Shown here: positions 925 to 18,406 of the stretch, piece after piece
Layout: each line of letters opens with the position of its first letter
Position numbering within the stretch: the stretch's first letter is position 1
Source: a virus
Lineage: Duplodnaviria > Heunggongvirae > Uroviricota > Caudoviricetes
Reading direction: 5' to 3' (one strand)
DNA length: 19,211 bases
Virus record (IMG/VR): IMGVR_UViG_2687453529_000007
Translations under genes and position numbers: made by a program
Notes under the pieces: generated by a model
Told to the model about the DNA's origin: nothing
The model's input: only the letters and a program-made list of their open reading frames with translations
The model's database searches: none

Positions 925-962
925 AAACACAACCCGCTACGGGGGAGACTTACCCGAAATCT

Positions 963-980
963 GATTTATTCAACAAAGCC
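963..980. repeat. IS903 right terminal inverted repeat
   Basis: GATTTATTCAACAAAGCC, matching the canonical 18-bp IS903 end. Confidence 0.8.
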
Positions 981-2689: not shown

Positions 2690-3037
2690 TTACGAATTAC
2701 TGCGGCGCTGTTGCTTTTCCGCATGTACGCGTTTCACAATCTTATAAATCCATTGCAGCGTCAGATTATATTTCTTCGCTAATTCGGCGTAGTTGCGCCC
2801 ATCGCACTCGCTATAGATTTGGTAGTCACGCTCCGATGCTCGTCCGGAGATCCCCTTAGGGAAATAGATGCTTTGTCCGCCCCAGTTACGCATCATTCGG
2901 TCGGCAATGGCAAAACCCACATTTTCTGCCGATGAACTGTCGAGATTGATGCTTTCAATCAGAACTTGCGATGCATGAAAAGCCAGGTCGTTAATGATCT
3001 CCGGTGTCCGGGCCATCTCTTTTGATTTTCGTATCAT
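2690..3037 (-). CDS. Mor/C-family (phage Mu middle/late operon regulator-like) transcriptional activator, 115 aa
   Basis: C-terminal region DGRNYAELAKKYNLTLQWIYKIVKR aligns with the Mu Mor helix-turn-helix region NGRNVSELTTRYGVTFNTVYKAIRR; GGAG RBS 7 nt upstream of the ATG; divergent from the lysis/tail genes. Confidence 0.75.
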   Translation of the reverse strand: MIRKSKEMARTPEIINDLAFHASQVLIESINLDSSSAENVGFAIADRMMRNWGGQSIYFPKGISGRASERDYQIYSECDGRNYAELAKKYNLTLQWIYKIVKRVHAEKQQRRSNS

Positions 3038-3258
3038 TTTTCATCTCCATATATCTTGCATCCTGAATAAGACCCGATGCGTGTAAAACCACGGATATAC
3101 GCTAAGCAGTTGTCATTACTGCTACTCAATACATTCAATAAACAAATAAACAATCACCAAAAATATAAACTTTTAATATTAATGAACGTCATAAATTCAC
3201 GAAATAAATATATTGTTTGGATTATGTTTCTTATCAACAGGAGTATCATTTTACACTA

Positions 3259-3278
3259 TACTGTATACATATACAGTA
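3259..3278. promoter_or_regulatory. LexA (SOS) operator, near-consensus
   Basis: TACTGTATACATATACAGTA versus consensus TACTGTATATATATACAGTA (CTGT-N8-ACAG core intact, one mismatch). Lies in the AT-rich divergent region between the Mor-like gene and the lysis genes, flanked by -10/-35-like hexamers on both strands. Confidence 0.75.
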
Positions 3279-3574
3279 TTATTTTTACCTGTAGAGTAAA
3301 AAGATCGTTTCCCTCACAGTCGCTGACTTTCTTAAACAAACTTTAAAAATCAAATAACTATCGACTATTCCTACGATCCACCATCATCTTTCCCCTGCAT
3401 AATGACGCGCTTATTAGCCTGGTCACCTTTTGCTCTTTAATTGCTGAGTCGATTTATTAGCGGGCTTGTTCATTTATAGAGAATCTATTTTTTAAACTTA
3501 TTTATTAAAGCTTTTTTCATTCTTCACTGGCGGGTTCTGACGACACTAAACGCTCACTTATCAGGAGATATCGT

Positions 3575-3862
3575 ATGAAAAAAGTCACTTTTCCCCGGCT
3601 TTCCGGCTGGCTAGTCGCTTCCGCCGCGCTGTTTGTCGTGATCGGCTGGACCTCTTCCGCACAGATCCCGGTCGTCATTTATAAACTAAGCCTGGTTTCG
3701 CTTTCCGCGGTGCTGGGATACTGGCTCGATCGCAGTTTGTTCCCCTGGGCACGGCCTGACTCTTTTAGCCCCTGGAAGGAACCTCGTTGCTGCGCGGCGG
3801 CAATGATTCGCCGCGCCATCATCGTTGCCGCCGTCTGTCTTTCCGTCGCCTTAGGGCTATAG
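3575..3862 (+). CDS. Small multi-pass membrane protein, putative holin (95 aa)
   Basis: AGGAG RBS 7 nt upstream; three hydrophobic segments; stop overlaps the start region of the downstream lytic transglycosylase (TAGTGATG). Function inferred from position. Confidence 0.45.
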   Translation: MKKVTFPRLSGWLVASAALFVVIGWTSSAQIPVVIYKLSLVSLSAVLGYWLDRSLFPWARPDSFSPWKEPRCCAAAMIRRAIIVAAVCLSVALGL

Positions 3863-3864
3863 TG

Positions 3865-4470
3865 ATGTGGCTGAAATATATCGCGTCTATGATTATTTTC
3901 GTTCTTTTCCCGCTTAACGCCTCTGAACCGCCGCGAGCCTCTCTGGCATGGCGAAACGAACTAATTCGTACAGCTCGAGAAGTCTGGGGGCTGAATGCTC
4001 CAGTGGCCGACTTTGCCGGGCAATTACACCAGGAGTCCGCCTGGCAGCCAATGGTACGTTCCCCCGTTGGCGCACAAGGTATGGCGCAATTTATGCCTGC
4101 TACAGCGACATGGATAAGCCAGTTGTATCCACAATTGCGTGAAAACAAACCGTATAACCCAACCTGGGCGATTCGCGCGCTGGTGCAATATGACCAGCAT
4201 TTGTGGAAAAACATCTCTGCGAAAAATGATTGTCAGCGTATGGCGTTTACCCTAAGCGCCTATAACGGCGGTCAGGGGTGGGTTAACCGGGATAAAAAAC
4301 TGGCTGCATCCAAAGGGTTAGATGCCACTAGCTGGTTTGGTCATGTTGAGCAAGTCAACGCCGGGCGCAGCGCCACGAACTGGCGAGAAAATCGTCGCTA
4401 TCCAAAGATGATCCTCTATCAACATGCCGCCCGCTATTTACTCTGGGGACAGGCAAGCTGTCTTCATTAA
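3865..4470 (+). CDS. Phage lytic transglycosylase (SLT domain) endolysin with N-terminal signal/SAR-like hydrophobic segment
   Basis: N-terminal MWLKYIASMIIFVLFPLNA hydrophobic stretch, then SLT motifs (LHQESAWQP with catalytic Glu, GMAQFMPATA, AYNGG). The track ORF 3787-4470 begins earlier with a non-ATG codon; ATG at 3865 sits directly after the holin stop. Confidence 0.8.
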   Translation: MWLKYIASMIIFVLFPLNASEPPRASLAWRNELIRTAREVWGLNAPVADFAGQLHQESAWQPMVRSPVGAQGMAQFMPATATWISQLYPQLRENKPYNPTWAIRALVQYDQHLWKNISAKNDCQRMAFTLSAYNGGQGWVNRDKKLAASKGLDATSWFGHVEQVNAGRSATNWRENRRYPKMILYQHAARYLLWGQASCLH

Positions 4471-4482
4471 TCAGAGGGGCCG

Positions 4483-4797
4483 ATGAAACTCAGTATCGAT
4501 TTTTGGGAAGTGATCTCCCTTATGCTTTCCTTCGTTGGATTAATGTTTGCTGCCGGAAAACTGCTGTTAGCACAAATTGAAAAACGACTTAATGAGCGTT
4601 TTGAGTCTCTGGAAAATGCCCGCAGGGAATCAGAAACAAGTTGGTCGAAACTGGAAAGAGAATTTCTCGAATTTCGTGCCGAGCTTCCGCTGCATTATGT
4701 CCGCAGAGAAGATTATCTTCGTGGGCAAGCAGTATTAGAAGCGAAGCTGGATGCCTTATATAGCAAAATCGAGCTGTTACAACGTGGCAGTTATTGA
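4483..4797 (+). CDS. Lysis accessory protein, Rz/i-spanin-like (N-terminal TM helix + coiled coil), 104 aa
   Basis: N-terminal TM segment EVISLMLSFVGLMFAAGKLLLA followed by charged coiled-coil-like sequence; position after the endolysin. No convincing embedded lipoprotein (o-spanin) ORF found by eye. Confidence 0.4.
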   Translation: MKLSIDFWEVISLMLSFVGLMFAAGKLLLAQIEKRLNERFESLENARRESETSWSKLEREFLEFRAELPLHYVRREDYLRGQAVLEAKLDALYSKIELLQRGSY

Positions 4798-4802
4798 AAA
4801 AT

Positions 4803-4834
4803 CCCCACCCTTATGTAAGGGTGGGGATTTTTTT
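4803..4834 (+). terminator. Rho-independent terminator closing the lysis cassette
   Basis: CCCCACCC-TTATGTAA-GGGTGGGG stem-loop followed by ATTTTTTT; an A-run upstream makes it potentially bidirectional. Confidence 0.85.
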
Positions 4835-4941
4835 AACCATTCAATTTTTTCTCTAAATCACATTAAAAGATTCTTCACCTTCGCTGCTTCAGAATACATT
4901 TCAACGATAACGAAGTGAGCGGTAATTAAGGTACAGCCTAT

Positions 4942-5397
4942 ATGGAAATTTTATCTGTAATGAATTCTGTTGTGACCAGATTACGTGAACACAACTCCGA
5001 AATGGATATATTTATTTCATCTAAGGATGCCCAGAAATATATTCCACAGACACAACGAGTTGCAGTGATTATTAATTATAGCGGTTCTGTCTTTGCTACG
5101 CCCGAAAGCAGTAATGCCATCGTGCAACAGCAAATACTCCGCTTAACCGCCACCGTTATTGTTGGCAAAAATTGTGATGCATTAAACGCACTTGATCACA
5201 TACGCAGCGCATTGGGTGGCCTTCCGCTTCCTGATTGTGATCGTCTGCTTTGGCTTGAAAAAGAAATTAATACGGGTGAGAGCGGCGGTTTCTGCCGCTA
5301 CATCCTGGAAATGGCGACCAGCTCGCTGTTTATCGCTGAACAGGAAAGCACGGATCTTCCCCTGCTTACGGAAGTTAACTACGAGGAAACTGAATGA
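4942..5397 (+). CDS. Putative tail completion / sheath-terminator-like protein (151 aa)
   Basis: First gene after the terminator, immediately upstream of a small ORF and the sheath gene, coupled to the next ORF. Family assignment is by position only. Confidence 0.35.
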   Translation: MEILSVMNSVVTRLREHNSEMDIFISSKDAQKYIPQTQRVAVIINYSGSVFATPESSNAIVQQQILRLTATVIVGKNCDALNALDHIRSALGGLPLPDCDRLLWLEKEINTGESGGFCRYILEMATSSLFIAEQESTDLPLLTEVNYEETE

Positions 5398-5591
5398 AAT
5401 ACATCTACAACGGCCCAGCAAGCGGCGTCACCCTTGCCGATGGACAAGAAATCTTATTGTGGCCGAACAGTGAAATTGATCTGCCAGAAGACAACGAGTG
5501 GGTCATGACCATGATTGCCCGCAATCATCTGACTCCTGTCATCACTCAGGAAGAACAAAATAACGTAGAGGAAATTGTACATGGCAGCTAA
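5394..5591 (+). CDS. Small conserved phage tail-module protein (65 aa) preceding the sheath gene
   Basis: GAGGAA RBS; ATG overlaps the upstream stop (ATGA); 3' end overlaps the sheath start by 11 nt. Function unknown. Confidence 0.4.
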   Translation: MKYIYNGPASGVTLADGQEILLWPNSEIDLPEDNEWVMTMIARNHLTPVITQEEQNNVEEIVHGS

Positions 5592-7005
5592 TTATCTGCA
5601 CGGTGTAGAAACTATTGAAATTGAAACCGGCCCGCGTCCGGTTAAAGCGGTAAAATCCGCCGTCATCGCTTTAATCGGTACATCCCCCTGCGGTCCGGTA
5701 AATAAACCAACATTATGCCTTTCTGAAAGCGATGCTGCGCAGTTTGGCTCGACTCAGGCTAACTTTACGATCCCACAGGCACTGAAGGCAATTTATGACC
5801 ACGGTGCCGGTACGGTGGTGGTGATTAACGTGCTGGATCCGGCAAAACATGGCTCCAACATCAGCAATGAGAGTATCACTTTTGATGCTAACAACCAGGC
5901 GAAGCTCGCTCACCGCAATGTGCGTAACGTGGTACTAAAGCCCTCTTCATCAAATTCATCAACCTTTAACACCGCAGCATTTAGCGTAGATGAACAAACA
6001 GGCATAATTACCCGTAAAGGAGCCGACATTCCTCCTGGTGCGAAAGTTTGTGCCTATTATTCCTGGTGCGACCCTACAAAGGTCACCGCAGCCGATATTA
6101 TCGGTACCGTAAATACCGCAGGCGACCGCACGGGGATGAAACTCCTTCAGGACACCTATAACCTGTACGGTTTCTACGCCAAAATCCTGCTTGCTCCTGT
6201 GTTTTGTACGCAAAAATCGGTGACTACTGAGCTGATTGCACAAGCGGAAAAACTCGGTGCGATTACCTACATTGATGCCCCGATTGGGACAACATTCCAG
6301 CAGGTATTGGCTGGACGCGGTTCGCAAGGGGCTATCAACTTCAATACCAGCTCTGATCGTGCGCGTTTATGTTACCCACATGTCAAAGTTTACGATGGCA
6401 TCACTAACCAGGAAATTCTTGAGCCTCTCTCTTCGCGTGCTGCCGGGCTGCGTGCCAAAGTAGACCTCGAAAAAGGTTTCTGGTGGAGCAACTCAAACCA
6501 GGAAATTCAGGGTATTACCGGTATTGAACGTTCGCTTTCCGCAATGATTGATGATCCACAAAGCGAAGTGAATCAGCTCAACGAAAACGGCATTACCACT
6601 ATTTTCAATAGTTACGGCTCTGGTCTGCGCTTGTGGGGTAACCGCACAGCGGCATGGCCTACCGTGACCCATATGCGTAACTTTGAAAACGTCCGCCGGA
6701 CAGGCGATGTAATCAATGAGTCAATCCGTTATTTCAGTCAGCAGTATATTGATATGCCGATTAATCAGGCACTTATTGACGCGCTGACCGAATCGGTAAA
6801 TACCTGGGGCCGAAAACTGATTGCCGACGGCGCACTGCTTGGCTTTGAGTGCTGGTACGATCCGGCACGAAATTCACCGGCTGAACTCAGCGCCGGGCAT
6901 TTATTGCTGAGCTATAAATTCACCCCGCCACCGCCGCTGGAACGTCTGACGTTTGAAACTGAAATTACTTCTGAATATTTAGTCTCTCTGGAGAGCAATA
7001 GCTAA
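5581..7005 (+). CDS. Contractile tail sheath protein (P2 gpFI-like)
   Basis: N-terminus MAANYLHGVETIEIETG resembles P2 FI (YHHGVQVLEINEG) and the C-terminus LLSYKFTPPPPLERLTFETEITSEYL resembles P2 FI ([26 protein letters not shown]). GAGG RBS 9 nt upstream of ATG 5581; the track ORF begins at TTG 5575. Confidence 0.9.
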   Translation: MAANYLHGVETIEIETGPRPVKAVKSAVIALIGTSPCGPVNKPTLCLSESDAAQFGSTQANFTIPQALKAIYDHGAGTVVVINVLDPAKHGSNISNESITFDANNQAKLAHRNVRNVVLKPSSSNSSTFNTAAFSVDEQTGIITRKGADIPPGAKVCAYYSWCDPTKVTAADIIGTVNTAGDRTGMKLLQDTYNLYGFYAKILLAPVFCTQKSVTTELIAQAEKLGAITYIDAPIGTTFQQVLAGRGSQGAINFNTSSDRARLCYPHVKVYDGITNQEILEPLSSRAAGLRAKVDLEKGFWWSNSNQEIQGITGIERSLSAMIDDPQSEVNQLNENGITTIFNSYGSGLRLWGNRTAAWPTVTHMRNFENVRRTGDVINESIRYFSQQYIDMPINQALIDALTESVNTWGRKLIADGALLGFECWYDPARNSPAELSAGHLLLSYKFTPPPPLERLTFETEITSEYLVSLESNS

Positions 7006-7529
7006 TGGCTGGAAAAATTCAAATTAACCGTATTACCAACGCCAATATTTATCTCGATGGTAATAACCTTTTAGGTCGTGCAACAGAAATTAAATTGCCG
7101 GATGTAAGTTTAATTATGCAGGAGCATAAAGCACTGGGCATGGTGGGTAAAATCGAACTCCCGGCAGGTTTCGATAAACTGGAGGGCGAAATTAAATGGA
7201 ACTCCTTCTATCAGGACGTAATGCGTAAAACGGCAAACCCGTGGCAGGCGGTTGCATTACAGTGCCGCTCCAGTATTGATTGCTATAACTCCCAGGGGAA
7301 AGCGAATCAATTAGCGCTAGTGACACATTTAACCGTGATGTTTAAAAAGAATCCACTGGGCACATTTAAACAGAATGAAAACCCGGAATTCAGCAGCGCC
7401 TTTGGTTGCACTTATATTAAACAAGTAGTTGATGGTGAAACGCTGCTTGAACTTGATTATATGGCCAATATTTTCCGGGTTAATGGTGTGGATCAATTAA
7501 GTACCTATCGCAATAACATCGGTGGCTAA
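7005..7529 (+). CDS. Tail tube protein (P2 gpFII-like)
   Basis: Start overlaps the sheath stop; C-terminus NGVDQLSTYRNNIGG matches the P2 FII end NGVDRLEQHRRNIGL. Confidence 0.85.
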   Translation: MAGKIQINRITNANIYLDGNNLLGRATEIKLPDVSLIMQEHKALGMVGKIELPAGFDKLEGEIKWNSFYQDVMRKTANPWQAVALQCRSSIDCYNSQGKANQLALVTHLTVMFKKNPLGTFKQNENPEFSSAFGCTYIKQVVDGETLLELDYMANIFRVNGVDQLSTYRNNIGG

Positions 7530-7579
7530 GTTATTCGGGGCTACGGCCCCGAACTTTGCAAAATAAATAAGGACACAAA

Positions 7580-7897
7580 ATGAAAGAACATTATATCTTG
7601 CAGTTTCCATTTACGTCGGCAGCAGGAAATAATATCGACACGCTGCAATTACGTCGCCTGAAAGTAAAAGATATGCGCAACGCCCGCCGGATCAGCGAAA
7701 AGCCAGAAGAGTGGGATGAACCGCTGATGGCGGCGATGACCGGACTGGTGCCAGAAGATTTAGCCGAAATGGATTTGCTGGATTACCAGGCATTGCAGAA
7801 ACGATTTCAATCCATGCTTACCGTGGTTACAGAATCCTCCCCTGCTATGGCAGGCAATGGCGCTACTGGCGAGATGGTTTCGCTTTCCGCCCAGTGA
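7580..7897 (+). CDS. Tail assembly chaperone (gpE/gpG-like), short product
   Basis: Small acidic protein between tube and tape measure genes, the position of frameshifting tail chaperones. Confidence 0.6.
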   Translation: MKEHYILQFPFTSAAGNNIDTLQLRRLKVKDMRNARRISEKPEEWDEPLMAAMTGLVPEDLAEMDLLDYQALQKRFQSMLTVVTESSPAMAGNGATGEMVSLSAQ

Positions 7898-7985
7898 GAT
7901 AGACGCCCTTACCGTCGATGACTTTAGCAACTGGCTGGATGAAGCCAGCGCCCAAATAAAAATCGAATATGACTCGCAGACCTGA
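7580..7985 (+). CDS. Frameshift-extended chaperone isoform (E+E'-like), requiring a +1 shift
   Basis: A +1-frame ORF is open from 7764 to the TGA at 7983-7985 and would append ...PPSEIDALTVDDFSNWLDEASAQIKIEYDSQT. The only candidate shift motif seen is CTT_TCC at 7883-7888. Site and mechanism are not proven. Confidence 0.4.
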
Positions 7986-8086
7986 TGTCTGCGAGTTTCC
8001 CAAGCCCGTCAGGTTTATTTCTTCCCTGCCCCTTTTTTTAGAAAAATAACCAGCGGGCCATTATCAATATTTAAAGAGAAACAATT

Positions 8087-8887
8087 TTGGCCAACGATAT
8101 TATTACCCAGCTTCAGGCGCGTAATGAGACGTTGACGCAGGCAATAGCCCGTTACGGCTCACTCAACGCCAGAACATTGTTAACTCTCTCTACTCAGCAG
8201 GCGACAGTTATCAAACTAACGCAGCAGCTTGCCGATTCCGCTCTCCGCCTGGAGGAAAATAGCCGCAGCCGCGCTAATCTGATGGAGAAAACCCAAACAT
8301 TTGCCGGGCAATTTAGCAAAGTATTCAATGTTGAAGCCCCCGACTGGAAGTTGCCGTATGAGTTTCAGGACAACATGGTCAATATGGCGACCAAAGGTGG
8401 GATGAATGCTACAACCCGCGAGACGCTCAGCCTTAATCTGCGCGACTGGAGCATGGATTTTAACCAGCAGCAGACCACCTTACAGAACGCAGCCCAAACG
8501 CTGATCGAAGGCAATTTGTCGTCGATGCAGGATCTCAACCGTTATATGCCGGAGATCGCCAAAGCTGCCACCGCCACGCGCGAAAGTGCTGAAACGTGGG
8601 CGAATGCCGCGCTCGCGACTCATGATCGACTGAATATTGCCCCGGAAAATTTCCACGCCGCGCAAAACATGATGTACGGCATTAGCAAAAGCGGTGGGCC
8701 TGCCATTGCTGAACAAACGCAGTGGATAGAGAAATTTGCAGGTAAAACCGGCGCTCAGGGTCTGGAAGGTATGGCTGAACTGACTGCCGCCATGCAGATC
8801 GCAATGAAAAATGGGGCCAGCGCCAGTGCGGCGGCGGAGAATTTTGAACCACTTTCTGCAAACCACCTTTTCGAAAAAAACCGATAG
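8087..8887 (+). CDS. Tail tape measure protein, N-terminal segment (frame A); TTG start
   Basis: Helical N-terminal region typical of tape measure proteins; ends at TAG 8885-8887 while a second frame continues. In-frame stop at 8072-8074 restricts the start to the TTG at 8087 (RBS AAGAG upstream). Confidence 0.6.
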   Translation: MANDIITQLQARNETLTQAIARYGSLNARTLLTLSTQQATVIKLTQQLADSALRLEENSRSRANLMEKTQTFAGQFSKVFNVEAPDWKLPYEFQDNMVNMATKGGMNATTRETLSLNLRDWSMDFNQQQTTLQNAAQTLIEGNLSSMQDLNRYMPEIAKAATATRESAETWANAALATHDRLNIAPENFHAAQNMMYGISKSGGPAIAEQTQWIEKFAGKTGAQGLEGMAELTAAMQIAMKNGASASAAAENFEPLSANHLFEKNR

Positions 8888-10463
8888 CTGGTTCGCCAGC
8901 CAGGGCGTCGATCTGCAAGGCTCTCTGCTTGAACATCAGCAAAACGGTATGGGTGTTAGCGAAGCCATGACTCATATCGTACAAATGCAGCTTGAGAAGA
9001 TGAACCCGGCGATCCTCGACACCTTCAAACGTACTATGCAGATTGAAGATTTATCTGCTCGCAGCAATGCGCTGCAATCGATGGTGTCGCAATTTAATCT
9101 GGGCGAAATGTTCGGCGATGTGCAAACGGTGGAATTCCTGGCACCTATGCTGGCGAATATGGAGGAATATCGCCAGTTAAAAGCCTCTGCCATGCAAGCC
9201 ACCAGCAAGAATCTGATTAACGCTGACTTTTCTGCGCAAATGGCCTCGCCCATTGAACAGACTAAAGCGTTACAGCTGGCATTAAATGATTTATGGCTCA
9301 GCATTGGTTTGCAGCTTATGCCGGCGATTGGCGAGCTGGCACAAAGCCTTACGACGGTTATTCGCCAGTTCAGCGCCTGGCTACGCGAACATCCGGCGCT
9401 GGTGCAAAACATTGCGAAAATCGTCGGGGCGGTTTGGCTGTTTAACGGCGCGCTGAATGTTTTAAAGCTGGGCGCGAACCTCATCACCTCGCCGTTTATT
9501 CGTCTGGTCGATATCTTCCTGAAAGTCAAGGCAAGTCTGGCGCTCACAGGCGGGGCAAGTAAGATGCTATCAGCGGTTAAGTCATTGGGTGGCGGCGCAA
9601 AATGGCTAATGCAACTGCTTGGTCGTGGCCTGATTGGCGCACTGAAACAGGTAGGTCAGACCGTCTTCTGGTTGGGTAGGGTTTTATTGATGAATCCCAT
9701 TGGTCTGGTCATCACTGCGATTGCGGGCGCTGCTTATCTGATTTGTCGCAACTGGGAGCCTATCTCCAGGTTCTTTTCGACCATCTGGCAACGTATCACC
9801 ACGGCCTTTGACGGCGGCATTGCAGGAATTTGTCGGTTGATTCTCGACTGGTCACCGCTGGAGTTGTTCTATAGCGCCTTTTCCAGTGTGATGAATTGGT
9901 TTGGTGTCGAGATGCCTGCAAGTTTTAGCGAGTTCGGCAGCAATCTTCTGGGCAGTCTGGTTGACGGCATAATGAATGCCTTCCCCGCTCTGAAAGGCAT
10001 TATTGATCAGGTAAAAAACGCCATCCCAGACTGGCTAAAAACCACGATGGGTATTAGTACAGAAGGATCGGCTACAGCTATTACAAGCACGACTAATACC
10101 GCATCCGTCTCCCCCGCGACCGTTGTTCCAGGCGTTGCCGGTGCGATTTTAACACCGCCGGTGGGCAAACAACTCGCGCCATCCGGCAAAACGGCTACGC
10201 CGTCATCGGCGCCAGCGGCAAAAAATACAGCCGCCAAACCCGTATCTGCCTCTTTACCTGGTAAATCCGTAACCAAACCGGCGACGCTACCCTCCCGTTC
10301 CTCAGGAAAAGTCCAGGTAAATTTTTCGCCACAAATTACCGTGCAGGGTAACGGACAAAACACCACTAAAGAGATTCAGAACGTGTTGACGATGAGTAAA
10401 CGCGAACTGGAAAGAATGATTAACGATGTAATGGCGCAGCAGCAGCGCCGGGGGTATGCCTGA
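8811..10463 (+). CDS. Tail tape measure protein, main/C-terminal segment (frame B, +1 relative to frame A)
   Basis: Frame B opens after the TGA at 8805-8807 and encodes typical tape-measure content (LQTTFSKKTDSWFASQGVDLQ motif region, long hydrophobic/Gly-Ala-rich middle, Ser/Thr/Pro-rich tail). Segments together total about 790 aa. Confidence 0.65.
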   Translation: MGPAPVRRRRILNHFLQTTFSKKTDSWFASQGVDLQGSLLEHQQNGMGVSEAMTHIVQMQLEKMNPAILDTFKRTMQIEDLSARSNALQSMVSQFNLGEMFGDVQTVEFLAPMLANMEEYRQLKASAMQATSKNLINADFSAQMASPIEQTKALQLALNDLWLSIGLQLMPAIGELAQSLTTVIRQFSAWLREHPALVQNIAKIVGAVWLFNGALNVLKLGANLITSPFIRLVDIFLKVKASLALTGGASKMLSAVKSLGGGAKWLMQLLGRGLIGALKQVGQTVFWLGRVLLMNPIGLVITAIAGAAYLICRNWEPISRFFSTIWQRITTAFDGGIAGICRLILDWSPLELFYSAFSSVMNWFGVEMPASFSEFGSNLLGSLVDGIMNAFPALKGIIDQVKNAIPDWLKTTMGISTEGSATAITSTTNTASVSPATVVPGVAGAILTPPVGKQLAPSGKTATPSSAPAAKNTAAKPVSASLPGKSVTKPATLPSRSSGKVQVNFSPQITVQGNGQNTTKEIQNVLTMSKRELERMINDVMAQQQRRGYA

Positions 10464-11416: not shown

Positions 11417-11625
11417 TGCGATACCTTGAACATATCACCACCGACGGCGAACGCTGGGATAATCTGGCATGGCATTACTACGGTGATGCGCTGGCTTATG
11501 AACGCATAATCGCCGCCAATCCACATGTAGCCATTTACCCGGTACTGCCTTCCGGTATTCAGCTCATTATTCCGGTCATTTCCGTCAATAAAACCTTATC
11601 GGAGATCCCACCATGGCTGAGATAA
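11416..11625 (+). CDS. gpX-like small tail protein (LysM-like fold)
   Basis: Pattern L-x-x-I-x-x-x-x-ERWD-x-L-A-W-x-YYGD...AANP...LPSG matches the P2 gpX family; ATG 11416 overlaps the upstream TGA (track start 11413 is a GTG). Confidence 0.6.
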   Translation: MRYLEHITTDGERWDNLAWHYYGDALAYERIIAANPHVAIYPVLPSGIQLIIPVISVNKTLSEIPPWLR

Positions 11626-12653
11626 GCGTAACTGGTGGCGTCTTTGCCACACTCACGCCCATTTTTACCCTCTGGTATGGGCATAAAGATATCACTTATG
11701 ACATCACACCCTATGTCACCAGCATCAGTTACCACGACAGCATCAAAAACGAGTCGGATACCATCGCAATTACACTGGATGACACAGATGGACGCTGGAT
11801 AAAAGAGTGGTATCCCGGCAAAGGCGATACGCTGGCGCTGCATATGGGTTATCAGGGAGAGAAGCTGCTCGATTGTGGTCAGTATATTATTGATAAAATT
11901 GATATTTCAGCGCCACCTTCTACGGTAAATATTGATGGCATCGCCACTTCCGTCAATCAGGCGCTGCGCACCCGTAACAGCCAGGGTTTTGAAGAAACGA
12001 CGCTTTCGGCTATCGCCAGCCGTATCGCACAAACTCACGGCCTAAAGCTGGTGGGCAAAATCGAGCCTCTGACAATTGACCGGGTGACACAGTACGGCGA
12101 AACCGATGTTGGATTTCTCAAACGTCTGGCCAGTGAATATGGTTATGCCGTAAAAGTGACGACGAAAGAGCTGATTTTTTCACATTTACCCACGCTGCGC
12201 TGCCTGGCACCTGTGAAAAAGATCGACCGCAAAGACGTTTCGCATTTCACCTTCAAAGATACCATTAACCGTATCTACAAAAACGCCACCGTACAGCATC
12301 AAAATAGTAAGAAAAAAGAACTGGTTATCTACACTCACAACAGCCAGCAAAAACCGTCTGCCCGTGGAGTCGGCACCAGTGCCGACACGCTAAAACTGAA
12401 CAGTCGGGCGACGGACGTTGGCGCAGCACAGGCAAAAGCCAACGCTGCACTCGACAGCCACAACGAATATCAGCAAACCGGAACGCTCACAATGATGGGC
12501 TGCCCGGAACTGACGGCGGGCAATAAAATCGAGCTAACCGATTTTGGCGTGCTTTCCGGTCAATGGCTAATTGATAAATCGACTCACAGTTTTGTGCGCA
12601 GCGGCTATACCACTGAAATCGACGTGTCGCGCGGGCCAGCGACCAGCCAGTAA
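11613..12653 (+). CDS. gpD-like tail protein (late control D family; baseplate hub)
   Basis: Collinear similarity to P2 gpD: TLSAIASRIAQ / DVGFLKRLASEYG / C-terminal DFGVLSGQWLIDKSTHSFVRSGYTTEIDV. GGAG RBS. Confidence 0.8.
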   Translation: MAEISVTGGVFATLTPIFTLWYGHKDITYDITPYVTSISYHDSIKNESDTIAITLDDTDGRWIKEWYPGKGDTLALHMGYQGEKLLDCGQYIIDKIDISAPPSTVNIDGIATSVNQALRTRNSQGFEETTLSAIASRIAQTHGLKLVGKIEPLTIDRVTQYGETDVGFLKRLASEYGYAVKVTTKELIFSHLPTLRCLAPVKKIDRKDVSHFTFKDTINRIYKNATVQHQNSKKKELVIYTHNSQQKPSARGVGTSADTLKLNSRATDVGAAQAKANAALDSHNEYQQTGTLTMMGCPELTAGNKIELTDFGVLSGQWLIDKSTHSFVRSGYTTEIDVSRGPATSQ

Positions 12654-12662
12654 GGAGGAAAT

Positions 12663-13364
12663 ATGAAAGGAGTAACCCGTCAAACGGGGATTATCAGCGA
12701 TATTGACGAAACCAGCGTTCGGGTGCGGGTCACGCTCCCGGAGTGTGACAATCTGAAGAGCAACTGGCTTGCGGTACTTCAACGCAATTCCCAGGACAAT
12801 AAAGACTACTGGCTACCGGATATGGGCGAGCAAGTGGAAGTTCTGCTGGACAATAACGGTGAAGATGGCGTGGTGCTGGGCGCAGTTTATTCTACGGTTG
12901 ACACCGCGCCTGTAGCCTCGCGCGACAAACGTTACGTCCAGTTTTCTGATGGCGCAGCGTTTGAATATGACCGCAGCACGCACCAGCTGACGATCAACGG
13001 CGGTATCGAGAAAATCGTGATTGAGGTTATCAACGGTACCTGCCTGACATCGCCCAACGTTGAGATTAAAGCCCAACAGGTCACCGTGACTTCCGATACC
13101 GTCGATGTTAAAGCGACCGATGTCAGCATCGACGCCACTAAGGTCGAGGTTAAAGCAGCAGCAGTGACGGTAGATGCGCCCATGAGCACCTTTACTGGCA
13201 ACGTCACGGTAATGAAAAAACTCACCTGGCTTGGCGGGATGGCAGGAAGTGGAGGCATCGGTAACGCAGCCACGATAACCGGCAATGTCAACGTGATCGG
13301 CAACGTTCAGGCCAGCGGCGCATTGCAGGACAGCGGTGGCAACTCCAACCACCATTCACACTGA
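12663..13364 (+). CDS. gpV-like baseplate spike protein
   Basis: Strong RBS TAAGGAGG; MGEQVEVLLDNNGEDGVVLGAVYS and VQFSDGAAFEYDRSTHQLTINGG match P2 gpV motifs; C-terminal His-rich tip NHHSH. Confidence 0.85.
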   Translation: MKGVTRQTGIISDIDETSVRVRVTLPECDNLKSNWLAVLQRNSQDNKDYWLPDMGEQVEVLLDNNGEDGVVLGAVYSTVDTAPVASRDKRYVQFSDGAAFEYDRSTHQLTINGGIEKIVIEVINGTCLTSPNVEIKAQQVTVTSDTVDVKATDVSIDATKVEVKAAAVTVDAPMSTFTGNVTVMKKLTWLGGMAGSGGIGNAATITGNVNVIGNVQASGALQDSGGNSNHHSH

Positions 13365-13369
13365 CGTTT

Positions 13370-13399
13370 AACCCGCCTGATGGCGGGTTTTCTCTTTTT
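13370..13399 (+). terminator. Intrinsic terminator inside the tail gene cluster (between gpV-like and gpW-like genes)
   Basis: AACCCGCC-TGAT-GGCGGGTT stem-loop followed by TTCTCTTTTT. Confidence 0.7.
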
Positions 13400-13462
13400 A
13401 ATCAATCAGTTTTCTAAATCGCTTTAATATCTCCACAGCCCGTTCAGGGCGAAAATACCCTC

Positions 13463-13822
13463 ATGAACACAAAAACACGCCCCTCAACGCTGCACTGGCA
13501 ACCGGCCTTGCTGCGGCCTGAAGAATACGTCTGCGGACTGGATGATATTCACCAGGCAATACACATCATTCTGCGTACACCGCGCGGCAGTGATCCCCAC
13601 AGACCGCTGTTTGGCAGCAACTTGTGGCACTACATCGATTACCCCATCGAGCGGGCTATCCCGCATGTGGTACGGGAGTCGGTGGAAGCCATCCGCCAGT
13701 GGGAACCGCGCTGTCGGTTGCTGAAGGTGACACCAGTAATCGACGGCGAACATCTGACGTTACGTGTGCAATGGCGCGCCGCTGACGGCGTTATCAACTC
13801 AACGGAGGTGTTATGGCGATAG
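13463..13822 (+). CDS. gpW-like baseplate protein (GPW/gp25 family)
   Basis: ILRTPRGSDPHRPLFGSNLWHYIDYP and WEPR match P2 gpW (ILRTPVGSRVMRRDYGSLL...IDQP, KWEPR). Confidence 0.85.
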   Translation: MNTKTRPSTLHWQPALLRPEEYVCGLDDIHQAIHIILRTPRGSDPHRPLFGSNLWHYIDYPIERAIPHVVRESVEAIRQWEPRCRLLKVTPVIDGEHLTLRVQWRAADGVINSTEVLWR

Positions 13823-14928
13823 CCGAACCCAATTTTATTGACCGCGATCCTGCGCAAATTACCAGTGAGATGATTGCGCAATACGAAGATGCCAGTGGTA
13901 AAAAACTCTATCCGGCACAGGCTGAGCGGTTGCTCATCGACCTGTTTGCCTATCGTGAAAACCTTGTACGCATCGCCATTCAGGAAGCGGCGAAACAAAA
14001 CCTGGTCGCGTATTCCCGCGCGCCAATGCTGGATTATTTAGGAGAGCTGGTGGGCGTTCACCGTTTGCCTGCGCAGCCAGCAAAAACGACGTTGCAGTTT
14101 TCGGTCGTCAGTGCGTATACCAGCAATATCCTGATTCCCCAGGGGACGCGGGCCAGTGCCTCTGATAGCGTGATGTTCGCCACCGATGAAGATGTTCTGC
14201 TTCCGGCCTGGAGTTTGCATATCGCCGTTCCTGCCACCAGCCTCGCAGCAGGTGAACAGGGTAACGGCTGGCAGCCTGCACAAATTAGCGCTCTGGTCGA
14301 CAGGATTGGTCATTATGACATCAACGTAACCAACCTGACTGCGTCAACGGGCGGCTGCGGTGAAGAGAGCGATGACGCATTGCGCCAGCGTATCCAACTG
14401 GCACCAGAAAGCTTTAGTAATGCGGGCAGCTATGGCGCATACCGCTTTCATACGCTTTCTGTTAGCCAGTCGATTATTGACGTTGCAGTACTGGGGCCGG
14501 ACGAGGGATTGCCAGAAGGCTGCGTGGAGATCTACCCGCTAACCCTGAATGGACTGCCAGGAATAGAACTGCTCGCGCAAATCGAACAGGAGGTTAGCAA
14601 GGAGAAAAAACGTCCGCTGACCGACAAAGTGAGTGCGAAATGCGCTCTTCGAGTGCCGTATGAGATCCGTGCGCAGCTAACGCTGTTTACCACCGCCGAT
14701 CAGGAGACAACGCTGGCTGCGGCGCGTAAAGCGATTAGCCTCTGGACGCAACAGCGGCAGAAACATCTGGGGCAAGACATTGTGCCAAACCAGATAATCA
14801 AAGTGTTACAGGTCGATGGCGTCTATGACGTTGCGCTGAACTTGCCTACAAAACGTATTTTGCAGGCGCATGAATGGGCGGAATGCACTGCAATAGACGT
14901 CACGATCGCCGGAGTTAGCGATGGATAA
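13813..14928 (+). CDS. gpJ-like baseplate wedge protein
   Basis: Size, position after gpW and overlapping start (GGAGG RBS) fit the P2 gpJ / Mu gp47 family. Confidence 0.8.
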   Translation: MAIAEPNFIDRDPAQITSEMIAQYEDASGKKLYPAQAERLLIDLFAYRENLVRIAIQEAAKQNLVAYSRAPMLDYLGELVGVHRLPAQPAKTTLQFSVVSAYTSNILIPQGTRASASDSVMFATDEDVLLPAWSLHIAVPATSLAAGEQGNGWQPAQISALVDRIGHYDINVTNLTASTGGCGEESDDALRQRIQLAPESFSNAGSYGAYRFHTLSVSQSIIDVAVLGPDEGLPEGCVEIYPLTLNGLPGIELLAQIEQEVSKEKKRPLTDKVSAKCALRVPYEIRAQLTLFTTADQETTLAAARKAISLWTQQRQKHLGQDIVPNQIIKVLQVDGVYDVALNLPTKRILQAHEWAECTAIDVTIAGVSDG

Positions 14929-15637
14929 ATTGCTACCACCGCCGCCGCTTGCCAGCGATGAGCGTTTTTCGATTCTGGCAAATATCGCCGCCGAGCGTTT
15001 TGCCCAACTCGATCTGACGGCGTTGATGGTTTATCTGGTCGACCTGGTTGATGCTTCGGCATTACCAGCCCTTGCAGAACAATTTCACGTTCAGGGGTTG
15101 GAAGGTTGGTTATTTACCACCGATGAGCGGGAGAAACGCGAGTTAATTAAACAAGCCATTGAACTGCATAAATATAAAGGAACAATTTGGGCGGTGCGGC
15201 GGGTGCTGGAAATACTCTCCTTACCCGGAACTATTTCAGAATGGTTTGAATATGGGGGAAGGGCTTACTTTTTTAAGGTTGATATTACACTAGAGAAAAA
15301 AGGATTAAATGAAGATGAATTCAATGCACTTATCACATTAATTCATGAATATAAAAATGTCCGTTCAAAGCTGGAAAGCATTGTTATTTGGCTTATTAAT
15401 CGAAGCCCAATACCAGTTATTGGCAGTGCCATGCAAGGAGGGGAAGTCATTACAGTATTGCCTCCTGTTGCAGAAAGCCTCAGCCAGTCATCTGGAATAT
15501 TTTTAGCGACAGGTTATTGTGTGGAGGAATATATTCAACTACTACCTTATCAACCCGATCGACTAACACAATCCCAACCGATGAAGGTCGGCACAGGATA
15601 CTGGAGCACCGAAATTATGTCTGTATATCCGGAGTAA
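14921..15637 (+). CDS. gpI-like baseplate/tail protein
   Basis: [15 protein letters not shown] matches P2 gpI HCHKGTIGAIRRVVE; overlaps the gpJ-like stop. Confidence 0.8.
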
Positions 15638-15639
15638 TA

Positions 15640-17250
15640 ATGGCAAGTGAATTTTTTACAATATTAACTGCTGCAGGCAAAGCCAAAATTGCCTCAGCAC
15701 TGGCCGAGCAAAAACAGATCCGTCTGCAAACTATGGTAGTTGGCGACGGTAATGGTAAATATATCGAACCGACAGAAAGTCAGACCAAAGTAGTCCATGA
15801 GGTCTGGCGTGGTCAGCTCAATACATTAAAAATTGCGCCAGATAATCCGGCCTGGGTTATCGCAGAAGCGATTATTCCCGAACAAGTCGGAGGCTGGTAT
15901 GTACGCGAAGTTGGGTTACTGGATACCGACGGCACGATGGTCGCTATTGGTAAATTCCCGGAAACCTATAAGCCACGATTACCTGCGGGGGCCAGTAAGC
16001 AAATCGTTATACGCGCGGTCATGGAAGTCACCAATGCAGATGCGGTGACGCTTTTGATCGACCCTTCAGTCGTTGTGGCAACCAGGGAATATGTCGATGA
16101 CGCGTTGAAAACACATCAGCAATCACGAAATCATCCTGATGCGACGCTGACACAAAAAGGTTTTACGCAGCTGAGTAATGCGACTAATAGCGATGATGAA
16201 ACCAAAGCGGCCACGCCAAAAGCGGTAAAAACGGCATATGACCTGGCAAATAGCAAAGCTGCCACCAGTCATAATCATGCCTGGAATCAGATTACTGGTA
16301 TCCCTGATGGTACACTGACGCAGAAAGGAGTCGTTAAGCTTAACAATACAACAAATAGCACCAGTACGACGGAAGCTGCAACACCAAGTGCGGTTAAGGC
16401 AGCGATGGATAAGGCTATTGCTGCGGCACCGTCCAGCCATACCCATGCCTGGGGGCAAATAACAGGTATCCCCGACGGTACGCTGACGCAAAAAGGGGTC
16501 GTGAAACTTAATAATGCGACCAACAGCACCAGTACGACGGAAGCTGCAACGCCGAACGCTGTTAAGGCAGCGATGGATAAGGCTATTGCTGCGGAAAGCT
16601 GTCCTGTTGGGATGCCTATTCCCTGGCCATCTGATTCTGTACCTTCAGGCTACGCTCTGATGACAGGTCAGACATTTAATAAAACCTCCTATCCCAAACT
16701 GGCAATTGCATATCCATCTGGTGTTATTCCTGATATGCGCGGATGGATAATTAAAGGAAAACCATCCAGTGGGCGCGCTATATTATCTACTGAACTGGAT
16801 GGAGTTAAATCACATAACCATACGGGCAGTATTTCGAGTACGGACTTAGGGACGAAATCTGTATCATCAATAGATCTAGGAACAAAGAACACTCAGTCAT
16901 TTAATCATGGGATAAAAACAACAAATACAGCAGGCGCGCATAGCCATGATAGTGGTTCTGGCGAAAGTAGTGAGGGGGGAAAACCTCGGTATGGTACTCG
17001 TGATAACACAACAAATAATTTTGGTTCTGGTGAATCAGATCATGACAATTACAAATTTAACACATCCACGGATGGAGAGCATGCACATTCAGTTAATGTT
17101 GGCTCACACTCTCACTCTGTTATTTTAGGGTCACATAATCATTCAATTGCCCTTGGTTCCCATAATCACTCCCTAACCATTAATAATACCGGCAACACCG
17201 AAAACACCGTCAAAAATATCGCATTCAACTATATTGTGAGGCTAGCATGA
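15640..17250 (+). CDS. Tail fiber protein (P2 gpH-like N-terminus, repeat-containing shaft, His-rich C-terminal receptor-binding region), 536 aa
   Basis: N-terminus [18 protein letters not shown]...HEVWRGQLN...[20 protein letters not shown]...[14 protein letters not shown] is collinear with P2 gpH. GGAG RBS 5 nt upstream of ATG 15640; the track ORF 15517 begins upstream inside the gpI-like gene. Confidence 0.85.
16267..16602 (+). repeat. Tandem 168-bp (56-codon) direct repeat, two copies, within the tail fiber gene
   Basis: Two near-identical units encoding SH(N/T)[47 protein letters not shown], with a degenerate third copy upstream; matches the phage tail fiber repeat class. Confidence 0.8.
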
Positions 17251-17954
17251 ATACTTTTACCTTTTCCGATGAAGCTCAAATACTAACTGTATATAATTTT
17301 TCACAAGACTCCCAAGAATATATCGGTGAGTCTGATGCATACATTGCACCTAATACAGGCTTGCCAAATTATTGCACATTAATTTCACCTCCCGAAAAGG
17401 TTCCTGGTTTTACTCCAGTGTGGGAGAATGAAACATGGAGACTTATTGAAGATCATCGAGGCCAAACTGTTTATAACAAAGTTGATGGTAGCCAGCTTAT
17501 TATTCAAGAATTGGGCCAATTACCTGAAAATGTAACAGTCATTTCCCCGACAGGTTCTTTTGAACGTTGGGATGGTGAAAAATGGCAACCATCTATAACC
17601 GATGCTAAAGAGGCGAAATACTCTGCAATCAAAAATCAACGCGATGCCATCACAACCGATTACATCATCATCAACAACCATCACTTCCACAGTGATACAA
17701 ATAGCCGTATCCAACAGCTTTCACTCACAAAAATGGGAGCGGAGAAAAAAATTCCGCCAGGTTTAATGTGGAAAACTAAAAATAATGGTCTGATTGAGTT
17801 AACCAACGAAATCGCTGCCCAGTTTGAATCGGTCACCATGGATCACGATATGCGCTTGTTCGCAAACGCCCAGCGTCATATCGCGGCGGTGGAAGCACTG
17901 GACGATATTCAGGCGGTGCTCGACTACGATTATTCAACAGGCTGGCAACCATGA
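17247..17954 (+). CDS. Tail fiber assembly chaperone (Tfa / gpG family)
   Basis: N-terminal half [44 protein letters not shown]...[34 protein letters not shown] closely parallels lambda Tfa; ATGA overlap with the fiber gene stop. Confidence 0.85.
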
Positions 17955-18406
17955 GTAAAACCACTGTCTGGCTCGCTTGTTATAAGGGCCGAACAGAGCA
18001 CCGTGGTATTGCCCGACTGGCTGACTGGCTTACCCGTAAAATCACACGCGGTCATTATTCCCACTGTGAATTAGCCGTTAAGCATGGTGAAAAGAGATAC
18101 CTTTGTTACTCTGCATCACTGCGCGATCGCGGTGTACGCGGAAAGATAATGCCATTGCCAGCGGATAAGTGGGATATGCTGCCGCTCCAGGCTAGCCTTC
18201 AGGATGTGGAAACTTTTTTCCGTAAACATGATGGCAAAAAATATGACTGGCGCGGAGCATTAGGAATTATTACCGGTAATAAAGAACAGCGCGATCGCCT
18301 GTTTTGCAGTGAATTTTGTGCTGAATTTCTGCAACTGAAGGAAAGCTGGCGCTATTCTCCAAACCACTTGTACGCTTTAGTCAGCAGCTGGCAATACCAG
18401 CAATAA
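17951..18406 (+). CDS. Hypothetical protein (151 aa) coupled to the tail fiber chaperone; possible His/Cys permuted-papain-like (LRAT/NlpC-P60 superfamily) enzyme
   Basis: ATGA overlap with the Tfa stop. Contains GHYSHCELAV and, about 75 residues later, RLFCSEFCAEFL, loosely resembling the His-then-Cys motif order of permuted papain-fold proteins. The fold assignment is tentative. Confidence 0.5.
   Translation: MSKTTVWLACYKGRTEHRGIARLADWLTRKITRGHYSHCELAVKHGEKRYLCYSASLRDRGVRGKIMPLPADKWDMLPLQASLQDVETFFRKHDGKKYDWRGALGIITGNKEQRDRLFCSEFCAEFLQLKESWRYSPNHLYALVSSWQYQQ

Follow-up and report, generated by a model that had tools for sequence, protein, structure and literature searches.

The question raised by the locus analyzed here, in which a set of contractile tail genes lies in a bacterial chromosome with no head genes beside it, is whether it represents a phage, the residue of one, or a phage tail-like bacteriocin (tailocin). 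The locus is part of a stretch of 19,211 nucleotides filed as a virus of the Caudoviricetes (IMG/VR record IMGVR_UViG_2687453529_000007), hereafter the window, which matches the chromosome of Escherichia coli strain ST648 at 100% (NZ_CP008697.1, 304907-324117). The original prediction placed a candidate R-type tailocin at positions 2690-18406. The genes are found at these coordinates, but the segment that is inserted relative to E. coli K-12 extends beyond the window end, to ~20410 in window numbering, and includes genes for an RlaP-family nucleotidyltransferase and a slipin. In our reading, to which we assign a probability of roughly 0.7, this island next to lysC is a domesticated BcepMu-type tail module that serves as an R-type tailocin of the carotovoricin lineage, linked to the SOS response and activated by Mor. 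Its candidacy is supported by flanks free of head genes, homology to carotovoricin, an apparently old head-less state under purifying selection, and swapped fiber alleles. The lysC island adds to the established R-type tailocins; it is not a new kind of system.

Scans of the open reading frames (ORFs) of the window against Pfam and PHROG identify a full contractile tail, from the terminator protein through the fiber chaperone, encoded in one orientation with overlapping stop and start codons, as had been predicted:

4942-5397 (+): tail terminator of the Gp37 family, 151 amino acids (Pfam Gp37, E = 4e-32; PDB 2GJV, E = 3.5e-54)
5394-5591 (+): conserved protein of 65 amino acids, homologue of BcepMu gp38 (PHROG 895, E = 3.5e-35; 47% identity to gp38)
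5581-7005 (+): tail sheath, 474 amino acids (Pfam Phage_sheath_1, Phage_sheath_1C)
7005-7529 (+): tail tube, 174 amino acids (Pfam Phage_tube, E = 4e-56)
7580-7897 (+): tail assembly chaperone, gpE/gp41 type, in the block 7580-7985 (Pfam Phage_TAC_7)
7857-7985 (+): unannotated ORF of 42 codons in the +1 frame, overlapping the end of the chaperone gene, homologue of BcepMu gp42
8087-10463 (+): tape measure protein, in two frames here (PHROG 28 and 5690)
10463-11416 (+): gpU-like protein (Pfam Phage_P2_GpU)
11416-11625 (+): gpX (Pfam Phage_tail_X)
11613-12653 (+): gpD hub (Pfam Phage_GPD)
12663-13364 (+): gpV spike (Pfam Phage_base_V)
13463-13822 (+): gpW baseplate protein (Pfam GPW_gp25)
13813-14928 (+): gpJ baseplate protein (Pfam Baseplate_J)
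14921-15637 (+): gpI baseplate protein (Pfam Tail_P2_I)
15640-17250 (+): tail fiber, 536 amino acids (Pfam Phage_tail_fib, Phage_fiber_2, Collar)
17247-17954 (+): fiber assembly chaperone (Pfam Caudo_TAP, DUF4376)

The contractile set is complete, comprising terminator, sheath, tube, chaperone, tape measure, hub, spike, baseplate wedge, fiber, and fiber chaperone, and the closest solved structure to the sheath is the R2 pyocin sheath PA0622 (E = 4e-45). The structure matched by the Gp37-family protein, 2GJV, is a hexameric ring from Salmonella Typhimurium (STM4215) that is counted among the tail terminator proteins; therefore, the cut falls exactly between head-side and tail-side functions. 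PHROG 209 tags the Gp37 family as a “portal protein,” a label that is misleading because the Salmonella orthologue is treated as a tail terminator. The 42-codon ORF is 39% identical to gp42 over 33 amino acids (E = 3e-6), is conserved in Salmonella, and would encode either a small chaperone in its own right or, after a frameshift, an extension of the preceding one. The break in the tape measure gene, which had been named as a possible obstacle to particle production, is not a property of the locus but private to this assembly. It consists of one extra A at 8847 (TTTTGAACC, compared with TTTTGACC in a near-identical copy, as aligned); the island spans 15717 nucleotides here but 15716 in its matches to other ST648 genomes, and in six other copies (L001-L004, L089, and L090) the gene is whole and encodes 791 amino acids. 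Within 50 kb of a single record (L006, the window with 15 kb on each side), three genes are frameshifted: the tape measure gene (8847), yjbH, and rluF (L006 5765-7863 and 36146-37017). Because yjbH and rluF are also flagged, an assembly error at 8847 is plausible; alternatively, the frameshift may be a real private mutation, and in that case the ST648 strain may be a non-producer.

The lack of capsid, portal, terminase, integrase, and replication genes that had been noted in the window extends to its surroundings. In the RefSeq annotation of L006, the window and the 15 kb to its left and right contain no capsid, portal, terminase, transposase, or integrase gene, and tblastn with the terminase, portal, capsid, and transposase proteins of BcepMu yields no match at the island. 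The left flank reads malEFG, psiE, yjbEFGH, pgi, a lysine riboswitch, and the first 276 bp of lysC; the right flank reads yjbD, rluF, the sor operon, pepE, yjbB, and metH. A search of these flanks for head, terminase, and integrase genes, which the original prediction had proposed, thus finds only core chromosomal genes, in K-12 order, and the same arrangement is present in other carriers. After the start of lysC comes an ISEcp1-blaCTX-M-14-IS903B unit with a fragment of a TonB-receptor gene, followed by the remainder of lysC and, 3′ of it, by the Mor gene, the lysis and tail genes, the RlaP nucleotidyltransferase gene, and the slipin gene. The lysC remnant described at the left flank is indeed lysC, but its remnant state is due to this strain-specific resistance-gene insertion, which is unrelated to the island: lysC is whole in other island carriers. 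The inserted unit (window 1-1508; L006 12120-16508) carries a chromosomal extended-spectrum β-lactamase gene and is confined to the ST648 strain and one near-identical genome (H2); the split lysC of the ST648 strain is a probable knockout.

K-12 homology ends directly after the lysC stop codon (at 2635), making the left border flush, and the left edge of the inserted segment is marked by an inverted repeat:

2648-2677 (strand not assigned): inverted repeat GGTGAATAGCG-N8-CGCTATTCACC, read from the sequence between the stop codons of lysC (2635) and mor (2690)

This repeat is probably a terminator common to lysC and mor. The window contains no tRNA gene and no Rfam family; a tRNA or att repeats at the borders are ruled out, with no tRNA present and the left border flush with the lysC stop codon. 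At the other end, ~290 bp between the slipin gene and yjbD (L006 35434-35721) have no K-12 counterpart, and ~80 bp of the K-12 lysC-yjbD spacer are absent from carriers.

The origin of the tail genes is apparent from comparison with phage genomes. In tblastn searches with the sheath, BcepMu-type phages are closest, with 71% identity to BcepMu gp39 and 74% to the proteins of E. coli phage PhiKM and Klebsiella phage KP12. The annotated BcepMu genome opens at the left with the minus-strand Mor/C-type activator gene gp01, followed by early and transposition genes and a repressor; it continues with the holin gp21, the SLT endolysin gp22, Rz/Rz1 (gp23/24), gp25, and gp26, and these are followed by the terminase, portal, protease, and capsid genes (gp27-gp36), gp37, gp38, the sheath gp39, and a P2-like tail in the order seen in the window. 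The island shares with BcepMu, PhiKM, and KP12 the Mor/C, holin, SLT, gp25, gp37, gp38, and tail genes, their order, and a late-promoter motif. Unlike these phages, it lacks transposase A/B, repressor, Rz/Rz1, terminase, portal, protease, and capsid, that is, relative to BcepMu, gp02-gp20, gp23/24, and gp26-gp36; with all these genes absent, a complete Bcepmuvirus prophage is excluded. The mixture of P2-like structural proteins and a Mu-type activator that had been remarked on is real, but it is no P2/Mu chimera because BcepMu phages hold exactly this combination, which is the normal architecture of the genus. Judged by gene content and order, the island descends from a transposable phage of the BcepMu type (Bcepmuvirus), of which it is the domesticated tail module.

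Relatives were collected by a scan of one genome per species, followed by tblastn with the window and BcepMu proteins, and fall into four groups. The first has no head genes, carries Mor, and lies beside lysC (E. coli, Salmonella, two Superficieibacter genomes, and Phytobacter massiliensis); the second is likewise head-less but keeps Rz and gp26 (six Pectobacterium species and Samsonia); the third, also without a head module, keeps transposase genes (Brenneria, which has a repressor homologue as well, and Lonsdalea); and the fourth comprises full prophages, in many genera. The comparison of the same locus in related genomes that had been suggested thus reveals a head-less island beside lysC again in Salmonella, Superficieibacter, and Phytobacter. 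Of 5426 complete E. coli genomes, 188-201 (~3.5%) carry the island, always in the chromosome, in identity classes of ~100, 97.5, 96.4, and 94.8%. In Salmonella, the orthologous genes STM4198-STM4219 occupy the same lysC site, with gtrABC between gpV and gpW.

Several observations point to an old head-less state. Throughout the lysC group, the gp25-gp37 spacer is homologous, including the terminator, a conserved promoter block, and the gp37 ribosome-binding site; therefore, the head deletion occurred once, before the copies diverged. All 20 of the 20 island ORFs compared between E. coli and Salmonella are intact, and the ratio of nonsynonymous to synonymous divergence (dN/dS) is 0.04-0.24 where dS is estimable. 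The island dS, 0.5-2.7, is of the same order as that of the flanking genes lysC (1.2), pgi (0.7), and yjbG (2.2). These values fit a long residence at lysC under purifying selection in the head-less state, with transfer by flanking recombination as another possibility. The fixed site on the lysC side is common to four genera, and diversification is confined to the receptor-binding module.

This module is variable in a manner reminiscent of bacteriocin specificity types. Three E. coli alleles encode fibers of 536, 526, and 608 amino acids with unrelated C-termini, while their sheaths are 99% identical. The ST648 and S10 fibers, for example, align over the N-terminal 318 residues alone (62% identity) and not at all beyond; the N-terminal half of the chaperone is swapped together with the fiber C-terminus, and the E. 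coli alleles are otherwise almost identical. The N-terminal 267 residues of the S10 fiber (L090 18849-20675) are 86% identical to the Salmonella fiber (L007 23319-24779), compared with 62% to the other E. coli alleles, which suggests that fiber modules are exchanged between genera. The fiber and its chaperone would accordingly form a specificity module that varies by allele replacement. Pyocin subtypes show the same pattern of receptor-binding-module exchange. It has also been seen in carotovoricin (PMC13195805). The repeat region of the fiber gene contains a tandem internal duplication of 162 bp (16265-16426 and 16433-16594, 84% identical).

The segment between lysC and the tail operon contains the following candidate control features:

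2690-3037 (-): Mor/C-family late transcription activator, 115 amino acids, homologue of BcepMu gp01 (Pfam Mor, E = 7e-38)
3250-3278 (+): predicted SOS control element, a LexA box with an overlapping promoter (sequence; lysC-group alignment)
3331-3348 (+): late-promoter motif CTTAAACAAACTTTAAAA, candidate Mor-dependent promoter of the lysis genes (motif scan)
3487-3511 (+): block ATTTTTTAAA.TTATTTATTAAA with the dyad TTTAA-N9-TTAAA (lysC-group alignment)
4853-4868 (+): late-promoter motif CTAAATCACATTAAAA, candidate Mor-dependent promoter of the tail operon (motif scan and alignment)

The divergent activator named in the original prediction is well supported: the protein falls in PHROG 532 (late transcriptional activator), is 49% identical to BcepMu gp01, and has Mu Mor (1RR7) as its closest solved structure. 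The SOS operator that had been read at the locus is likewise borne out as a predicted site. The LexA box, TACTGTATACATATACAGTA at 3259-3278, is the sole exact CTGT-N8-ACAG in the window and fits 19 of the 20 bases of the E. coli consensus. In the lysC-group (“five-genus”) alignment of the mor-holin region, which takes in E. coli, Salmonella, the two Superficieibacter genomes, and Phytobacter, this near-consensus box is invariant while its flanks diverge, within the block CATTTTACAC.ATACTGTAT..ATATACAGT that also includes the TTTACA just upstream. The conserved box and the adjacent Mor gene suggest stress-linked control. The best sigma-70-like match at the box appears to direct transcription rightward (TTTACA at 3250-3255, a 16-bp spacer, and TACAGT at 3272-3277; 9 of 12 positions). 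An overlapping leftward promoter toward mor is possible, with a -10 element TAAAAT (the reverse complement of 3248-3253) and a poor matching -35 element. As to a clear mor promoter, the E. coli candidates fail conservation in Salmonella. A small protein or RNA 3′ of the LexA box was rejected, with no ORF conserved in the lysC-group alignment and no Rfam match, as was the 89-codon ORF at 3077-3346, which contains the LexA box, has no family match, and is not conserved. Immediately 3′ of the LexA box, GATC sites number three, closely spaced, in Salmonella (L007 ~7770-7810), two in Phytobacter, and one in E. coli; clustered GATC sites recall phase-variable control of the Dam/OxyR type, as in Mu mom and gtr operons.

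The late-promoter motif, CT(T)AAA-N3-6-[AT]TTAAAA, occurs twice in the window, before the holin gene (3331) and before gp37 (4853), versus 0.07 occurrences expected. It is found at both equivalent places in the Pectobacterium carotovoricin cluster (ctv) and in Samsonia, before gp37 in Salmonella, before the holin gene and in the gp31-gp32 spacer in BcepMu, and in the G-I spacer of PhiKM, before the head protease gene. By analogy with the activators Mor and C of Mu, we infer that it marks Mor-dependent late promoters. The promoter of the tail operon aligns as the homologue of the spacer that separates the G-like and protease genes in the phage, and therefore the deletion took gp32-gp36 exactly between the late promoter and gp37. 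The block at 3487-3511, ~65-90 bp 5′ of the holin start and invariant in the lysC-group alignment, may be a second activator site.

Between the activator and the tail operon, the locus has lysis genes of its own, namely, a holin gene and a gene for a predicted exported SLT transglycosylase, and the operon is closed by a terminator:

3575-3862 (+): holin, 95 amino acids, homologue of BcepMu gp21 (Pfam Holin_2-3, E = 1e-26; 63% identity)
3865-4470 (+): lytic transglycosylase endolysin, 201 amino acids, homologue of BcepMu gp22 (Pfam SLT, E = 1e-14; 55% identity)
4483-4797 (+): membrane-anchored coiled-coil protein, 104 amino acids, homologue of BcepMu gp25 (46% identity, E = 2e-35)
4796-4835 (+): intrinsic terminator of the lysis operon, a 17-bp stem followed by a T run (fold, -26.9 kcal/mol; z = -5.5)

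The N-terminus of the transglycosylase reads as a hydrophobic export or anchor segment, MWLKYIASMIIFVLFPLNA. Of the lysis cassette originally described, the holin and the transglycosylase are borne out by Pfam, but the “Rz-like” ORF is the gp25 homologue: the ORF at 4483-4797 matches the Rz protein gp23 at E = 0.44, compared with 2e-35 for gp25. The ORF at 4751-4918 was rejected as Rz1, crossing the terminator and having no lipobox context. Homology of the gp25-like protein to the “releasin” gp25 of Mu was also rejected; the two share position and architecture only, with no similarity to the Mu protein (DUF2730) and a different Pfam family. The gap of about 145 bp with a terminator that had been described between lysis and tail genes is present at 4798-4941, with the hairpin given above, and the lysC-group alignment shows the terminator stem to be kept by compensatory changes.

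Orthologous structural genes in the same order place the island, in all likelihood, in the carotovoricin lineage of BcepMu-derived tailocins. Carotovoricin Er (Ctv), the R-type tailocin of Pectobacterium, is likewise head-less and derived from a BcepMu-type tail. Identities to the Pectobacterium ctv proteins are 76% for both sheath and tube, 66% for the gp25-like protein, 61% for the SLT transglycosylase, 60% for gpD, 56% for both holin and gpJ, and 27% for the tape measure. As in the lysC island, the late promoter of ctv abuts gp37 after the head deletion, and the motif also precedes the holin gene. Ctv keeps Rz and gp26, whereas the lysC island is without both; conversely, neither a mor gene nor a LexA box lies beside the Ctv cluster (10 kb examined), whereas the lysC island has both. 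Ctv is controlled by RecA through RdgA/RdgB, encoded elsewhere, and RdgB is reportedly Mor-like (Liu et al., 1994); a Mor homologue search meant to reach RdgB returned close relatives alone. The fiber of Ctv is reportedly switched by DNA inversion, to go by the title of a paper, whereas the Pfam scans of the window ORFs detect neither a recombinase nor an invertase domain. Going by its title, a paper from 2006 reportedly has carotovoricin share an ancestor with a Salmonella Typhi prophage. The chromosomal sites differ, tolC_2-ybiB for Ctv (PMC13195805; a tolC-like gene in L015) and lysC-yjbD here, and the fiber locus is diverse in both systems (PMC13195805). In the Pectobacterium loci, a TolC-like outer-membrane gene lies directly 5′ of the holin gene, which is the boundary described for carotovoricin across all species of the genus (PMC13195805). 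Imaging and mass spectrometry have linked clusters of the carotovoricin type to particles (PMC11974492). The statement that no well-characterized system exists in this lineage therefore holds, within the open-access literature, for E. coli and Salmonella but overlooks carotovoricin.

The island of Salmonella Typhimurium LT2 (STM4198-STM4219) shares with that of E. coli the lysC site, the deletions, the LexA box, the promoters, and the terminator, with proteins 61-96% identical. It differs in containing the gtrABC O-antigen glucosylation operon (L007 18227-21062) and other right-end cargo, with no RlaP or slipin gene, and it is seemingly widespread in Salmonella, in contrast to its low frequency among complete E. 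coli genomes. These genes are annotated as phage tail genes or a remnant; the fiber gene STM4200 is in use as a Typhimurium PCR marker, and the sheath STM4213 has been detected by proteomics, with its mRNA up ~6-fold with indole. In the open-access literature, no paper treats the lysC locus as a tailocin in E. coli or Salmonella, and a 2023 review of named R-tailocins lists none from either. The R-type pyocins of Pseudomonas aeruginosa resemble the island, at the level of genes, in combining a chromosomal head-less contractile tail with lysis genes, an activator, and fiber subtypes. They are of P2-like ancestry, have the baseplate genes before the sheath, and are controlled, in response to DNA damage, by the repressor PrtR and the activator PrtN, versus a putative circuit of a host LexA box and Mor at the lysC island. 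An E. coli ST131 “tailocin,” likewise made up of contractile-tail genes, forms the tail region of a prophage conserved in ST131; it was aligned to pyocin R2 in R2 gene order at 24-47% identity, and lysC goes unmentioned (Tantoso et al., 2022; PMC9205054). Identity with the lysC island is ruled out, the two differing in locus and lineage.

From these comparisons, a history can be read and a mode of action proposed. An ancestral prophage beside lysC lost its early, transposition, and repressor block (gp02-gp20), the spanins gp23/24, and gp26 with the packaging and head block gp27-gp36. It retained the late activator Mor and, from the lysis region, holin, exported transglycosylase, and the gp25-like membrane protein, as well as every tail gene from the terminator to the fiber and its chaperone. 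The phage late promoter that once preceded the head protease gene was also retained and is now fused directly to gp37. Upon DNA damage, activated RecA would cause LexA to cleave itself and thereby derepress the promoter under the LexA box in the mor-holin region. Mor would then drive the two late promoters with the CT(T)AAA-N-TTAAAA motif, one before the lysis genes and the other after the terminator, before the tail operon. Tails of ~120 nm would assemble on the 791-residue tape measure, and holin and transglycosylase would lyse the producer and release the particles. The fiber would bind a surface receptor of related strains, probably lipopolysaccharide, the sheath would contract, and the target would die by membrane puncture; swapping of fiber and chaperone would create specificity types.

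At its right end, beyond the fiber chaperone gene, the island includes accessory genes:

17951-18406 (+): orf151, conserved protein of 151 amino acids, homologue of STM4198 (homologue alignment, AlphaFold model, Foldseek)
18420-19211 (-): RlaP-family nucleotidyltransferase (Pfam RlaP, E = 4e-96)
L006 34217-35344 (opposite strand to the tail genes): slipin (Band 7) gene, just past the window (RefSeq)

H38/C39/E40 and C119/S120 of orf151 are invariant in 34 homologues. Its AlphaFold model (pLDDT 78) has the cysteine peptidase 3KW0 as its sole meaningful Foldseek match (probability 1.00, TM 0.54), and the protein is probably a permuted cysteine hydrolase of the NlpC/P60 type. It is conserved in Salmonella and in many Enterobacteriaceae and Pasteurellaceae, belongs to PHROG 1128 (moron), and is often labeled “enoyl-CoA hydratase,” which is probably wrong because of the conserved His and Cys residues and the fold match to 3KW0. 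The RlaP and slipin genes lie within the segment inserted relative to K-12, accompany the island in E. coli (L089 and L090), and are absent from that of Salmonella; they are cargo, not tail components, and may be plain cargo or a defense pair. Neither these two genes nor orf151 matches a known defense system in PADLOC.

Some observations weigh against a functional tailocin. Transcription from the best promoter at the LexA box would proceed away from mor. No Rz/Rz1 or other recognizable spanin was detected at the locus by sequence comparison and tblastn, and release may therefore be inefficient. Damaged copies exist, with the tape measure frameshift here, IS1 in the chaperone gene (L002), an ISKox3 insertion, and truncations. 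For several genes dS is saturated, so that the case for purifying selection since the loss of the head genes is built on the shared junction. Finally, the open-access literature holds no experiment on the lysC locus in E. coli or Salmonella. The missing spanin genes and the frameshifts, IS insertions, and truncations of single copies would also suit an inert, decaying remnant of a BcepMu-like prophage with no useful product, as would the presence of the island in only ~3.5% of complete E. coli genomes and the years of annotation as phage tail genes without a phenotype. We nevertheless consider such decay unlikely. The head-less state and the same junction recur in four or more genera whose proteins are 60-96% identical, no ORF is broken and dN/dS is 0.04-0.24, the regulatory motifs are invariant while neighboring noncoding DNA has diverged, and diversification is confined to the receptor-binding module; moreover, the homologous carotovoricin cluster is functional (PMC11974492), and the Salmonella sheath protein is expressed (STM4213).

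The particles could also have a role other than killing kin, such as supplying tails to capsid-only satellites or defective phages, controlled altruistic lysis, or action on eukaryotic cells in the manner of extracellular contractile injection systems (eCIS). The target of a particle is not fixed by sequence, the accessory genes for the NlpC/P60-like orf151, RlaP, and slipin are present, and the Salmonella cluster holds an operon, gtr, that modifies O-antigen. We regard roles of this kind as improbable. Unlike the Afp and PVC eCIS, the window ORFs include no AAA+ ATPase, Afp/PVC-type sheath or tube paralogue, or toxin cargo in Pfam scans, and Afp3 and Pvc2 appear only as distant sheath matches (E ~3e-4). 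The sheath and baseplate are of the phage/pyocin type, the fiber has a P2 H-type collar and repeat domains with alleles swapped like bacteriocin specificity types, and the closest characterized relative is a bacteriocin (PMC11974492). That the locus is part of a complete prophage with head and replication genes just outside the window can be dismissed, given 15 kb of core genes in K-12 order on each side, the same in other carriers, and the negative tblastn results with BcepMu terminase, portal, capsid, and transposase.

Beyond the ST648 locus, the tailocin reading can be extended to the lysC-side islands of E. coli, Salmonella, Superficieibacter, and Phytobacter as a whole, which could represent one ancient, fixed, and still-active R-type tailocin, wired to LexA without a phage-type repressor and with fiber types that recombine between genera; we give this wider proposal even odds. 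It is a speculation that gtrABC within the Salmonella cluster might protect the producer by receptor modification. Other clusters resemble earlier or parallel cases. In Brenneria (L014 and L016) and Lonsdalea (L028-L030), BcepMu-type transposase A/B genes lie 5′ of the lysis genes, and Brenneria also has a Mor gene and the repressor homologue; these clusters look like an intermediate stage of domestication. In Chromobacterium (L043-L052), a Mor-family gene lies directly 5′ of gp37, gp38, and the sheath gene, with no holin, SLT, or head genes detected in the available flanks, and these may be further head-less tail clusters.

R-type tailocins shape competition between strains and are under development as precision antibacterials. 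To our knowledge, tailocin applications for E. coli have so far retargeted Pseudomonas pyocins. If the tailocin reading is true, the lysC island would be the first R-type tailocin native to the two enteric bacteria that have been studied most, filed until now as a “phage remnant” (STM4198-4219), and it would offer a natural scaffold with ready receptor-binding modules from extraintestinal pathogenic E. coli lineages (ST648) and Salmonella serovars. It could help to explain strain replacement in the gut and would give a function to the Salmonella island whose STM4200 serves as a serovar PCR marker. The series that leads from full prophages through head-less clusters with transposase (Brenneria and Lonsdalea) and carotovoricin to the minimal form in E. 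coli would present the stepwise reduction of a transposable phage to a weapon, with the circuit of late promoter and activator kept.

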